Source of the DNA: an uncultured delta proteobacterium
GTDB taxonomy: Bacteria; Desulfobacterota; Binatia; UBA9968
Direction: 5' to 3'
Length of the DNA stretch: 64,000 nt
NCBI GenBank assembly: GCA_963755715.1
Contig: CAVWLW010000038.1
Coordinates: forward strand, 32,001 to 96,000
Shown here: positions 36,569 to 40,588 of the stretch, in pieces
Layout: the number at the start of each line of letters is the position of its first letter
Position numbering within the stretch: the first letter of the stretch is position 1
Translations under genes and position numbers: made by a program
Notes under the pieces: generated by a model
Databases searched by the model: none
What the model was told of the DNA's origin: nothing
Seen by the model: only the letters and a program-made list of their open reading frames with translations

Positions 36569-37390
36569 TCACTTTCCCCAATCCCGCGAATAGCGAAAAT
36601 CACGGTCAATGGTTCGCTGCGACACTTTGGCGATCACCGGCAGGCGCCGTTTGAATTGTGAAGTCATGATCTGGAGAGCAACTCTGTCGATAAACGTTTC
36701 GGCAAATCCTAAAGTCATTAGCTCCGGCTTGGTGCAACGCTGATCGACCATCATGTAGAGAAGCTTGTCCACTTCCCGGTAAGTGAATCCCAACTCTCCC
36801 TCGTCGGTTTGACCCACCCAGAGATCGGCTGAGGGCTCCTTCGCGACTATCACTGATGGCACCCCGATCGCTTCCGCCAACGCCCAGACCTGCGTCTTGT
36901 AAAGATCGCCGAGCGGATTTATCGCCGAAGCCATATCGCCGTGCAGCGTGCCGTAGCCGAGCAATAATTCGGTTTTGTTGCTCGTGCCGATCACCAAGCC
37001 GTTCCAGCGCGCTGAATGATCGTAGAGTATCGTCATGCGCTCGCGCGCCATCTTGTTGCCGCGCCGCCGCGCGTCGGCGTCCGGGAAGCGATCAAAGTAC
37101 GCGTCGATTTGCGGCGTAATATCGACGACCAACGATTCGAGATTGCTTTTCTGCGCGACCATTTCGGCATGCGCCAGGCTATCGGGATTGGAGCTCTTGT
37201 ACGGCATCAAAACAGCGAGCACGTTTTTCGCGCCGAGCGCTTCGGCGGCAAGCATGGCGCTGAGCGCGGAGTCGACGCCGCCGGATAATCCCACGATGAC
37301 TCGATTCATGCCGGTCTTCTGCACTTCATTGCGGATAAAACCGGTGAGGATTTCGCGCAGCAGCGGCGCATTGGTAGGAATTTGCATCAT
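36569..37390 (-). CDS. nadE: NAD+ synthetase, synthetase subunit
   Basis: [37 protein letters not shown]. Confidence 0.95.
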
Positions 37391-37395
37391 GACCG

Positions 37396-38337
37396 TTACG
37401 GCGGGCAGCCGGAGGCTAGCGCTTTCGCTTTTTTGACGCTTTGAAGCGTTGAACTTTCGAAACCTTTGAGCTTTTGCGCGACATGCGCCGCCGGCCGCTC
37501 GCGAATCCGCATCAATTCATTGATCGTCAGATCGATGTCCTCATCGCGCAGCAGCGGCGACATCGTGCGTTTGCGGCGCACCGATTCCAGCGCAATATCG
37601 GCGACGAGAAAATCTTCTTCATAGTATTTCGCTTTGGCGATCCGCTGGCCAAAAGGATCGACGATTTCCGAACCGCCCCAAAAACCGACGCCGTCCTCGA
37701 AACCACAGCGATTGCCGTACACCATGAACAGACTATAGGTCTCCGCGTAGGTGCGGTTGATCATTTCCCAATAGCGCGCGTTATCGTCCTGAGCTTGCGC
37801 GTCGACGATGCCGCGCAGCGGGCTGGCCGACGGACAGAGAACCGCCAGCGCGCCGTCCAAAGCGGCCAGATAAATCGTCGACGGGTGCCACAGATCCTCG
37901 CAGATCAACAGCGCTAAGCGACCGAACTTCGAATCGAAGACGCGAATTCGGTCGCCGGCGGCGAAATAGCGCTGCTCGTCAAACATGCCGTAGGTCGGCA
38001 GGTAGACTTTGCGGTGCGTGTGGCGAATTTCGCCCTTTTCAAAATAGACCGCGGCATTGAAAAACCGATGGTCGGCGCTTTCCTCGACGAGCCCGGCGAC
38101 GAACGGCAGTTCACGGCTTAATTTTTTTAGCGCCTTCATTTCAGCGGAATTCATCGTCAGCGCGACACTCGGAACCGTATCGCGAAGGTAGTAACCGGTA
38201 AGACTCAGCTCCGGAAAAAGCAGCAGATCGGCCGAGTCTTTGACCGCCTGGCGAATATTTTCCTCGTAGAGCCCCATATTGGCGTCGAGGTCACCAAGCT
38301 TTGGATTTATTTGGGCGATTGCGATGCGGATCGACAC
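37396..38337 (-). CDS. nitrilase-family C-N hydrolase, probable glutaminase partner of NadE
   Basis: FPELSLTGY (E), [18 protein letters not shown] (K), ICEDLW (C) triad; adjacent to nadE. Confidence 0.88.
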
Positions 38338-38480
38338 GGGGAAGTCTCCATTAGCTCTACGATGCAATAAATTCTTATGAAAGTAACATAGGGCTCAGCT
38401 CACTTGCAATTTAACCTCTGCGCGCCTATTTTCGATCAAGCAATCGACTGGAAAAAGCCATAGTCAGGTTATCGGGCAAC

Positions 38481-38705
38481 ATGGATGAAAAAGTTCTGAT
38501 ATTCGGAAAAGATCTCTGACCGTACACCGCCGGCGCCCGGGAGGCATTCAGCCGCCGTAAGATTCCTCATGAGTACGTCAACGTCCTCGAAGACGAGCAG
38601 GGCTTGGAGCGCATGCTCAAGCTTTCGAACGGCCGGCGCCAAGTTCCGGTCATCGTCGAAGCCGGTAAAGTTTCGATCGGCTTCGGCGGTTCGTGAGAAG
38701 TTTAG
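38481..38705 (+). CDS. UXX-star family glutaredoxin-like selenoprotein with two Sec residues (74 aa)
   Basis: Manual translation MDEKVLIFGKDL-U-PYTAGAREAFSRRKIPHEYVNVLEDEQGLERMLKLSNGRRQVPVIVEAGKVSIGFGGS-U-EV-stop; TGA at 38517 and 38694; cis-Pro VP motif; SECIS-like hairpins after both. Confidence 0.88.
38532..38553 (+). promoter_or_regulatory. candidate SECIS element 1
   Basis: GGC-GCC-CGGGA-GGC-ATTCA-GCC; loop starts 18 nt after UGA 38517-38519. Confidence 0.55.
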
Positions 38706-38706
38706 C

Positions 38707-38725
38707 GCGCCGGCGGAGCCGGCGC
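38707..38725 (+). promoter_or_regulatory. candidate SECIS element 2
   Basis: GCGCCGGC-GGA-GCCGGCGC perfect stem; G-first loop 18 nt after UGA 38694-38696; no T-tract. Confidence 0.7.
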
Positions 38726-38768
38726 TGCACGCCATCCTATCAGCTTAAGCGAACGGTCTAAGGCCGAC

Positions 38769-39845
38769 GTGAGCGAGCCGATCAATCCGCTAATCACTGC
38801 TAAAATCCGCGCCGTCTTCGGCGCCGATCAGACATTGACCGCACTCGTGCCGCTCGCCGGCGACGCTTCGAGCCGCCGCTACTATCGAGCCATCCTCAGC
38901 GGCACCGGCACGCCGCCATCCATCATCGTCATGGAGCTGCCGGCCGGCAGCTCGCTACCGCTTTCGAGCGAGGAGTTGGCGATATTCAAGGAAGGGCCGA
39001 AAGAACTGCCATTTTTGAACGTACACCGTTTTCTCAGCCGGACCGGCGTCAATGTGCCGCAAATTCTCGGCGCTTGGGAAAAAGACGGAATTCTTTTGCT
39101 CGAAGACTTGGGCGATACAGCGCTCTGGGACCGGGTCCAGGGCTTGGCCGAGGACGACACCGTCGCCTGGTATCAAAAAGCGATCGACGAATTGTTGAAA
39201 ATACAGATCCGCGGCACCGAGAATCGCGACGGCTCCTGCATCGCCTTCCAACAGCGCTTCGATCTTAAGCTCTACATGTGGGAGTTCGAGCATTTTATCG
39301 AGTGGGGCTTGGAAAAACGCCCGGGCTCGGTCGTCAACGCGAACATGACGGGCCAGCTAAGAAAATCCTTTGCCGCCATCGCCGAGCTTTTGGACCGCCA
39401 AACTCCCTGTTTGAATCACCGCGATTATCACAGCTGGAATTTGATGATCCAAAACGAAGCCGTGCGCGTGATCGACTTTCAAGACGCGCTCATGGCGCCA
39501 CCCCAGTATGACCTCGCGTCCCTGCTGAACGATCGAGTCACCGACAGCGTGATTCGGCCGGCGCTCGAAGAACGGCTCGTGCGCTATTATATCGAGCGCC
39601 GCGGCGAGCTCGAAAAGCGCAAAATTTCGGCCGATGAATTCTGGGAAATTTACCGTCTTTCGGCTATTCAGAGGGACTTGAAAGTCGTCGGCCGTTTTTA
39701 CTATCTCGATCTCGTGAAAGGCAAACCCGGCTATATGAAGTTCGTGCCGCCGACCGCGCGGCGGCTCGAACGCAATCTCGCCAACGTCGCGCAGACGCAA
39801 CCCGTGCTGGAATTACTACGCGAACACTTCGAGGCGATGCGATGA
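38769..39845 (+). CDS. amgK: anomeric MurNAc/GlcNAc kinase (APH-like phosphotransferase)
   Basis: LAGDASSRRYYR, HRDYHSWNLM, IDFQDA, YDLASLL, QRDLKVVG; paired with a nucleotidyltransferase. Confidence 0.82.
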   Translation: MSEPINPLITAKIRAVFGADQTLTALVPLAGDASSRRYYRAILSGTGTPPSIIVMELPAGSSLPLSSEELAIFKEGPKELPFLNVHRFLSRTGVNVPQILGAWEKDGILLLEDLGDTALWDRVQGLAEDDTVAWYQKAIDELLKIQIRGTENRDGSCIAFQQRFDLKLYMWEFEHFIEWGLEKRPGSVVNANMTGQLRKSFAAIAELLDRQTPCLNHRDYHSWNLMIQNEAVRVIDFQDALMAPPQYDLASLLNDRVTDSVIRPALEERLVRYYIERRGELEKRKISADEFWEIYRLSAIQRDLKVVGRFYYLDLVKGKPGYMKFVPPTARRLERNLANVAQTQPVLELLREHFEAMR

Positions 39846-40588
39846 AAGCGATGGTCTTGGCCGCCGGCCAAGGCACCCGTCTGCACCCGATCACCGATAG
39901 CCAACCGAAAGCGCTCGTGCCGCTCGCGGGACGGCCGATGATCGAGTATGCGCTCTTGTTGCTGCGCCACTACGGCATCGGCGAGATCATCATCAACCTG
40001 CACCACTTCGGCGAGCAGATCGAAGATCGGCTCGGCGACGGTCAGCAACTCGGTTTAAACATCATGTACTCGAAAGAAACCGAGCTTCTCGATACCGGCG
40101 GCGGGCTTCTTAAGGCCAAAGCATTCCTGCAAGACGGCAGTTTTATCGTGATCAATACCGACGCGCTCATCGATTTGAATTTGGCCGAAGTGATCGCGTT
40201 TCACAAAAGCAAGAACGCCGCCGCGACGCTGGTGCTTCGTCCCGACGAAAACGCCGAGCAATACGGTTCGATGGATATCGACGAGCACGGCCGCATCTGC
40301 CGTTTCCTTCGGACCCAGGCGCCGATCCGACCGGCGGGATCGATCCAGACGTTGATGTTTTCCGGCGTGCAACTTCTCGAGCCTATCGTTTTCGACTATA
40401 TGGGCGCCGCTCAGGCGGCGCGAAAGTTCAGCACGACCCGGGAAACTTATCCGAAAATGCTGAGCGCCGGCGAAACACTTTCTGGATTTTGCTTCAAAGG
40501 TTTTTGGCAGGACCTTGGAACCATCGAGCGAATTAAACAGGCTGAAGAAAGCCTGGCTTCGGGTCGCGCCAGGCTGCATTATCTTTGA
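39842..40588 (+). CDS. murU: MurNAc-alpha-1-phosphate uridylyltransferase-like nucleotidyltransferase
   Basis: MVLAAGQGTRLHPIT/PK, INLHH, LDTGGGL, WQDLGT; ATGA overlap with amgK. Confidence 0.8.
   Translation: MKAMVLAAGQGTRLHPITDSQPKALVPLAGRPMIEYALLLLRHYGIGEIIINLHHFGEQIEDRLGDGQQLGLNIMYSKETELLDTGGGLLKAKAFLQDGSFIVINTDALIDLNLAEVIAFHKSKNAAATLVLRPDENAEQYGSMDIDEHGRICRFLRTQAPIRPAGSIQTLMFSGVQLLEPIVFDYMGAAQAARKFSTTRETYPKMLSAGETLSGFCFKGFWQDLGTIERIKQAEESLASGRARLHYL

Follow-up and report, generated by a model that had tools for sequence, protein, structure and literature searches.

A UXX-star family 1 gene with two in-frame UGA codons in an uncultured delta proteobacterium, and a possible role for its tail selenocysteine

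Two TGA codons interrupt a short reading frame at positions 38481..38725 of a 64,000-nucleotide window from an uncultured delta proteobacterium (the window being the whole stretch of DNA analysed here). They raise the question of whether this is a selenoprotein gene in which both codons are decoded as selenocysteine (Sec), and of what a second Sec so close to the end of such a small protein might do. The sequence-only reading of this DNA had placed here an ATG-initiated frame that carries TGA at codons 13 and 72, closes with a stop two codons after the second and is missing from the list of open reading frames (ORFs). Its coordinates and residues proved exact: the coding sequence of this UXX-star family 1 selenoprotein occupies 38481..38705 on the forward strand (74 residues, opening with the ATG at 38481 and with the TAG stop at 38703-38705 included), and translation of 38481-38725 with TGA read as U gives MDEKVLIFGKDL-U-PYTAGAREAFSRRKIPHEYVNVLEDEQGLERMLKLSNGRRQVPVIVEAGKVSIGFGGS-U-EV, then TAG. 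The UGA of codon 13 (38517..38519, forward strand) lies at the redox-active position U-P-Y-T (context DL-U-PYT), and that of codon 72 (38694..38696, forward strand) provides the tail Sec in the context GGS-U-E-V-stop. After UGA72 come GAA, GTT and the TAG, i.e. Sec, exactly two codons and a stop, a layout kept in 30/30 relatives. The ORF list indeed held no ORF in this frame, which is overlapped only by ORFs in other frames at 38469..38735 (reverse strand) and 38569..38748 (forward strand).

With U read as C, the translation scored 114.1 bits against a cut-off of 72 with the NCBIfam equivalog model NF041114 ('UXX-star selenoprotein family 1'), and a six-frame search with the stops left in gave 99.5 bits. 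The parent model NF041212 was likewise exceeded (88.2 bits, cut-off 66), and the sister models NF041211 (49.8 vs 100), NF047338 (52.3 vs 97) and NF045501 (54.5 vs 325) stayed under their cut-offs. The first of these scores bears out the earlier assignment to a known family of glutaredoxin-like proteins with two Sec residues. The Pfam Glutaredoxin domain was matched over residues 5-63 with 44.2 bits; all Grx and NrdH models of NCBIfam scored under cut-off, GRX_bact among them (33.5 bits vs 90). Nothing of substance distinguishes the protein from UXX-star family 1 as modelled in NF041114, which has the same U-x-x-T site, the same second Sec followed by two residues and a stop, and a length of about 70-75 residues. 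UXX-star families 2 and 3 and the HUGP/GUXX-star fusion share its glutaredoxin-like core and likewise carry a Sec three residues before the C-terminus; unlike the fusion, the protein described here carries no HUGP domain. The family is already known and catalogued (curated and widespread), so that for the source genome the selenoprotein gene is an annotation correction, not a discovery. The primary description of the UXX-star families is reportedly that of Haft and Tolstoy in mSystems in 2025. A 2026 review (PMC13188914) lists a 'Distant Grx-like protein 1' with the motif UxxT and 2 Sec, and cites Haft and Tolstoy 2025 for the UXX-star families; the name 'distant Grx-like protein 1' is absent from the main text of Zhang and Gladyshev 2008 and of Peng et al. 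2016.

NF041114 matches over the cut-off were found in 36 of 41 related genomes, the source genome included. Counted per genus with the source genome excluded, they occurred in 24/24, 11/11 and 2/2 genomes, and in 0/3 genomes of two other genera; across the phylum the gene was present in 95 of 401 sampled genomes. The M-D-E-K start is conserved among relatives, and in their alignment 49, 41 and 73 of the 75 codons vary at the first, second and third position, respectively. These data bear on the reading in which there is no selenoprotein at all, the TGAs are plain stops or errors, the frame is open by chance and the antisense ORF of 88 codons at 38469..38735 is the real gene. That ORF exists and its frame is open in 19/30 relatives; it is closed in the other 11/30, the family score lies far over the cut-off, the same two TGAs recur across dozens of genomes, the forward frame varies preferentially at third codon positions and codon 13 shows Sec/Cys pairs. 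Family score, genome counts and conserved TGAs effectively refute this reading, which we regard as vanishingly improbable.

The identity of the residues at the two TGA positions was followed through three sets of relatives. In 30 fetched loci translated directly, the tail codon was TGA throughout, and codon 13 was TGA in 24 and Cys in 6; leaving out one of them (L040, genome G005) changes no conclusion. A scan of 185,579 species genomes used one pattern that called for Cys at position 13 and another that called for it at the tail. It returned 26 relatives, each of which combines Cys13 with a tail TGA, and no form with Cys at the tail; this brings the directly translated loci with a tail TGA to 56 of 56. 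A collection of 5.8 billion proteins contained 852 matches at E <= 1e-5. Among the best 120 of these 852, 113 end right before the tail codon and are all Cys13 forms, 5 were translated with TGA as Trp (W), 2 could not be parsed and none has Cys at the tail. The expectation that homologs would carry Cys or Sec at the aligned positions held for position 13, and the tail codon was TGA in every directly translated locus. Pooling the loci gave 77 distinct sequences (44 Sec13 and 33 Cys13 forms), for which a tail count of '77/77 TGA' holds partly by construction, because the search pattern demanded a stop codon at the tail; the unbiased tail counts are those of the 30 loci, the 26 loci and the best-120 set. 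Within the pool, no Sec or Cys occurs outside residue 13 and the tail position: the number of Cys per protein is 0 in the 44 Sec13 forms and 1 in the 33 Cys13 forms. Judged from these alignments, the Sec/Cys toggle at position 13 is the classic signature of a redox residue.

Ordinary gene callers overlook the gene, and its Cys13 relatives (entries P0003-P0121) are stored three residues short, clipped at the tail TGA, often under the names 'glutaredoxin 3' or 'GrxC'. Variant relatives with a tether longer by 12 residues, GF.G....LRGG.P.FGGT-U-x-V, were seen in other genomes of the phylum (L086, L087, L090, L092-L094 and L096). Their active site reads U/C-P-F-C and their U is not followed by a stop two codons later; in one paralogue among these loci Tyr replaces residue 13 and the tail U is kept.

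A base-call error at the TGAs, which the sequence-only reading had named as a finding that would count against it, is excluded because, of the 30 relatives, 24 share the TGA of codon 13 and all 30 that of the tail, and because contigs from independent public sequencing runs agree with them. Of 24 listed runs, labelled soil or rhizosphere metagenome with one exception, 14 contain most of an 801-base stretch around the gene, and no difference at either TGA is listed in the contigs. Contigs from RNA libraries span 38462-38634 and 38632-38933, the uncovered parts carrying no meaning; UGA13 is covered by contigs from two metatranscriptome libraries and UGA72 by one. The contig 38632-38933 spans the stop, the hairpin that follows it and 165 bases at the beginning of the next ORF, and as contigs these sequences cannot prove transcription or a joint transcript.

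Decoding of UGA as Sec calls upon selA, selB, selC and selD, whose presence in the genome had been set as a check. All four are there, with the restriction that selD is split over two frames in the assembly. selA (617 bits), selB (416 bits) and selD are clustered on one contig, and the tRNA-Sec encoded by selC scores 76.7 bits against a gathering score of 47 with the anticodon tca; selA, selB and tRNA-Sec exceed their cut-offs and are intact, and selD exceeds its own in its split form. The latter, itself a selenoprotein with one in-frame TGA, lies at G000:C3:71086-72013 on the reverse strand (about 1400-1960 of locus L011) as two overlapping pieces in different frames, 71086-71667 and 71648-72013, with an apparent single extra base near ...GGADK|VKESGAVVIGGHS... 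(also written ...GGADK/VKESG...). Were the split real, Sec could not be made in this organism. Twenty relatives were searched for selD: 18 have it in a single frame with one TGA, one has it truncated where the contig ends, and in one incomplete genome no match was found. Three further TGA-interrupted frames elsewhere in the genome, all on the reverse strand (G000:C17:57002-57193, G000:C36:93614-93781 and G000:C43:138460-138630), are redoxin- or GST-like, resemble selenoprotein genes and speak for Sec decoding being in use. They comprise a small glutaredoxin-like U-G-P-C frame, a glutaredoxin-like U-S-S-C frame that opens a longer protein and a GST-like U-P-Y-A frame.

The visible extra base, set beside the single-frame genes of the relatives, is what speaks for a gene that is intact and silent: the selD frameshift would be real, no selenophosphate would be made and translation would halt at codon 13. 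Against this, the gene, both hairpins, selA, selB, tRNA-Sec and at least three other TGA frames are intact, neither TGA shows decay, and a single-base indel is a common error in a draft assembly of 76 contigs. We consider a silent gene improbable, and the selD split is probably an assembly error. That the locus is a genuine member of the family with both UGAs decoded as Sec seems to us close to certain, and on comparative grounds the UXX-star gene is most likely real and translated as a 74-residue protein.

If both UGAs are read as Sec, signals that direct the decoding should lie nearby. Bacterial SECIS elements, by the criteria of bSECISearch, are hairpins placed shortly after the UGA, with an apical loop about 16-37 nt downstream and a G in the loop. 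Stems with a G-containing loop 18 nt after each UGA, the second of them in the 3' untranslated region, had been pointed out before; both were recovered, and it is the tail stem that covaries, the first being less clear. The tail hairpin (38705..38728, forward strand) starts at the last base of the stop codon, which places this SECIS-like element in the 3' untranslated region. Its core (38707-38725) is a G+C stem of 8 bp with the loop GGA at 38715-38717, which begins 18 nt past UGA72, and a minimum free energy of -19.7 kcal/mol. In shuffles of the single sequence it did not stand out (z = -0.73; 41/200 shuffles fold equally well or better). Among the 30 relatives, 88.5% of the cells were paired vs 75.2 ± 1.9% in shuffles, a value that 0/500 of them reached, and vs 20-70% in partner-slid controls, and compensatory changes on both sides were found in 5/7 pairs. 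The loop opens with an invariant GG in the relatives, most of which have GGU(C) where the source copy has GGA. With its G-containing loop at 18 nt and its covarying stem, the tail element fits the SECIS criteria. It is followed by no T-run, and a consensus scan found no terminator there; scanning 38250-38850 for promoter and terminator consensus sequences gave nothing, and an Rfam scan of 38300-38900 with E up to 10 gave no SECIS family and only three chance-level snoRNA/sRNA matches.

The hairpin after UGA13 (38528..38557, forward strand) lies within the coding sequence, covering codons 17-26, and is bulged. An apical stem GCC/GGC closes the loop CGGGA (38538-38542), which begins 18 nt past UGA13, and is separated by a 5-nt bulge from a lower stem CGGC/GCCG; with the loop fixed, the local fold has 9 pairs around the loop and -10.0 kcal/mol. 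Shuffles of the single sequence folded equally well or better in 185/200 cases (z = +1.28). As neither hairpin beats shuffles on a single sequence, the case that they exceed chance comes from the comparison of relatives. In almost every sequence, local folding gives a hairpin around a loop at +21 to +25. The wobble pair 20-26 is paired in 44/44 Sec13 forms, changes from C-G to U-A included, vs 22/33 Cys13 forms (Fisher p = 3e-5, uncorrected for relatedness), and the loop-fixed energy averages -8.2 kcal/mol in Sec13 forms (n=44) vs -4.6 in Cys13 forms (n=33; Mann-Whitney p = 5e-5, again uncorrected for relatedness). The unconstrained folding energy after codon 13 showed no difference between Sec13 and Cys13 forms (-9.59 vs -9.10 kcal/mol), several Cys13 forms retain the stem, and amino-acid constraints overlap it. 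Since the register of the lower stem differs between lineages, RNAalifold recovered next to nothing from the ungapped region around codon 13, and an all-pairs pairing screen of the region was too noisy for use. As a SECIS-like element the first hairpin thus has weaker and mixed support. Residue 22 (codon 38544-38546) is Ala, whose GCN codon pairs in the first hairpin, in 24/44 Sec13 forms; in Cys13 forms it is Ala in 2/33 and otherwise Asp. This pattern may come from a constraint that the RNA stem puts on the protein, or it may reflect phylogeny alone. Both UGAs are most likely read as Sec by SelB and Sec-tRNA, and the hairpin that follows each of them would direct its decoding.

What the protein might do was approached through its predicted structure. 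An AlphaFold2 model built with 29 aligned relatives (mean pLDDT 86.6) has four strands and two helices (β1 5-9, α1 14-25, β2 30-34, α2 39-48, β3 57-60, β4 63-66), and directly after β4 a coil tail, residues 67-74, with a pLDDT of about 68. The best solved matches in Foldseek were glutaredoxins and NrdH-like redoxins with TM scores of 0.6-0.77; glutaredoxin domains of thioredoxin-glutathione reductase (TGR) were among the fold matches, and a sequence-profile search of the PDB gave 0 matches at E <= 0.001. Judged by the model, the fold is a minimal glutaredoxin/NrdH-like thioredoxin fold that lacks the usual C-terminal helix. Alignment with the genome's own 84-residue CPYC glutaredoxin (29% identity) places residue 13 at its first Cys, as the sequence-only reading had supposed, Thr16 at its second Cys and residues 66-67 at its GG motif; Thr16 is invariant in the 29 aligned sequences. 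The protein falls outside the class I dithiol glutaredoxins, having U-P-Y-T instead of C-P-Y-C and no helix past β4. It has the fold, the Pfam match and the position of the first active-site residue in common with canonical CPYC glutaredoxins and NrdH/YruB-type redoxins; it differs from the canonical glutaredoxin in that Thr stands for the second Cys, and a coil of 8 residues with Sec takes the place of the C-terminal helix.

In the glutaredoxin fold the GG motif lines the active-site groove. A possible precedent for a resolving residue close to it is yeast Grx5, where a Cys just past the GG motif is reported to resolve the active-site Cys, a point for which a literature search returned no confirmation. 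In the protein described here the tail would leave β4 beside the active site, five residues past the position of the glutaredoxin GG motif. Because the UxxT site has no resolving Cys, the protein contains no other Cys and the tail would lie near the active site, Sec72 would be the only internal residue able to resolve an adduct of Sec13. We propose that the protein is a small redox carrier with Sec13, at the start of helix α1, as the nucleophile; its U-x-x-T site having no resolving Cys, Sec72 on the flexible 8-residue tail would resolve Sec13 by forming a reversible Se-Se bond, or a Se-S bond in the Cys13 relatives. The sequence-only reading had suggested such a Sec13-Sec72 diselenide relay and, in addition, a selenium-dependent output; the results would be compatible with both. 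A Sec-decoded family member that acts as a small redox carrier with Sec13-Sec72 resolution is the best explanation overall and has, in our estimate, about an even chance of being right; for the intramolecular Sec13-Sec72 Se-Se relay taken by itself, we would put the likelihood at even or a little short of it.

The same tail could serve a different partner. Sec72 might act between molecules: its target would be another protein, or Sec13 in a second copy of the same protein bound head to tail as a dimer, and the bond within one molecule would not arise. The tail is modelled as a coil of lower confidence and could reach outward, animal thioredoxin reductase uses its Sec arm for the other subunit and for external substrates, and the variant relatives elsewhere in the phylum bear their U-x-V tail on the longer tether. 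The family 1 tail, however, is short, and since the family 1 forms have no other resolving residue, an internal partner is the economical reading. An exclusively intermolecular role therefore appears rather unlikely to us.

The gene neighbourhood was inspected for a substrate or partner. Upstream and divergent lie a nitrilase-type amidohydrolase gene (37396-38367, reverse strand) and, adjoining it, nadE (36569-37390, reverse strand), i.e. NAD synthetase as two adjacent genes, not as the fused glutamine-dependent enzyme. Downstream, on the forward strand, an AmgK-like kinase gene and then a MurU-like nucleotidyltransferase gene (together 38769-40588) follow at a distance of 63 nt, and then comes a Cu-Zn superoxide dismutase gene on the other strand. 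Of the earlier description of this region, the nearby sodC and the adjacency to a gene pair some 60 nt downstream stood; the names amgK and murU did not in full, since with 107 bits (cut-off 550) and 174 bits (cut-off 250) the two are only AmgK-like and MurU-like, far under the cut-offs. An AmgK-like gene is found 3' of the selenoprotein gene in 21/30 related loci and a nitrilase-like gene 5' of it in 18/30; both are absent from all eight loci of the third genus (0/8), and the amgK/murU-like linkage is limited to two related genera, found neither in the third nor phylum-wide. We further scanned 82 neighbour proteins at 24 loci, 20 from across the phylum and 4 from the third genus (g3), and among them there was no recurrent reductase or redox partner and no conserved neighbour that would indicate a substrate. 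Compared across these loci, the selenoprotein gene behaves as if it stood alone, and its linkage to amgK/murU appears to reflect lineage-specific gene order passed on by descent. A nucleoside diphosphate kinase (NDK) gene and then a protoglobin-PsiE fusion gene follow the selenoprotein gene in 5/20 diverse loci (L107, L108, L110, L114 and L125), two of which (L110 and L114) have a DNA glycosylase (HhH-GPD) gene upstream; shared ancestry alone may account for this recurrence. SelB is encoded next to the selenoprotein gene once among the 24 loci.

Instead of a self-contained redox pair, the two selenolates could be ligands for a metal or metalloid (e.g. Hg, As, Cu, Zn) or for another small substrate. 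Metal binding, and not a relay, is what the 2026 review suggests (PMC13188914). Chelation would be a natural use for two soft ligands carried on a flexible arm, and a tail Sec that is never Cys in the sets examined would fit a need for selenium chemistry here as well. On the other side, none of the 82 neighbour proteins at the 24 loci belongs to an arsenic, mercury or copper resistance family, the neighbours in the window are genes of NAD synthesis and sugar-nucleotide-like genes, and the fold together with the position of residue 13 is of the thiol-disulfide oxidoreductase type. We hold metal or substrate binding to be unlikely, though worth naming, and return to the Sec13-Sec72 relay as the preferred reading.

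For that relay, two known systems offer a comparison. Animal thioredoxin reductase and thioredoxin-glutathione reductase carry a C-terminal Gly-Cys-Sec-Gly arm, the part of which the tail of the UXX-star protein would play. In both cases a Sec near the C-terminus sits on a glycine-rich flexible arm and could shuttle electrons; unlike these enzymes, the UXX-star protein has no flavoprotein and no Cys adjacent to the Sec, and its arm is on the redoxin itself, so that the likeness is an analogy of mechanism, not homology. That the tail is never Cys in the sets examined while residue 13 toggles suggests that the arm requires selenium chemistry, as does the Sec arm of animal thioredoxin reductase. 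The second system is SelL, which Shchedrina et al. are said to have described in 2007 as a thioredoxin-fold selenoprotein with a UxxU diselenide. Both proteins have two Sec in a thioredoxin fold and a diselenide has been proposed for both, with the difference that SelL has both Sec in one UxxU motif and the UXX-star protein has them 59 residues apart.

A bolder proposal goes beyond the relay, and we offer it as speculation that is less likely to be right than wrong: the tail Sec would be an obligate, selenium-only swinging arm, the 74-residue protein would be a self-resolving redox unit, and termination at UGA72 under low selenium would turn the gene into a selenium-sensing switch. If this is true, the protein would rank as the smallest counterpart in nature of a thioredoxin-reductase Sec arm that is joined to its own redoxin, and at low selenium a stop at UGA72 would yield a tail-less form of 71 residues with different chemistry. 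The family is widespread, and its pattern of exactly two Sec/Cys per protein, a tail Sec for which no replacement by Cys was found and a toggle at site 13 gives a hypothesis that is cheaply testable with recombinant protein.
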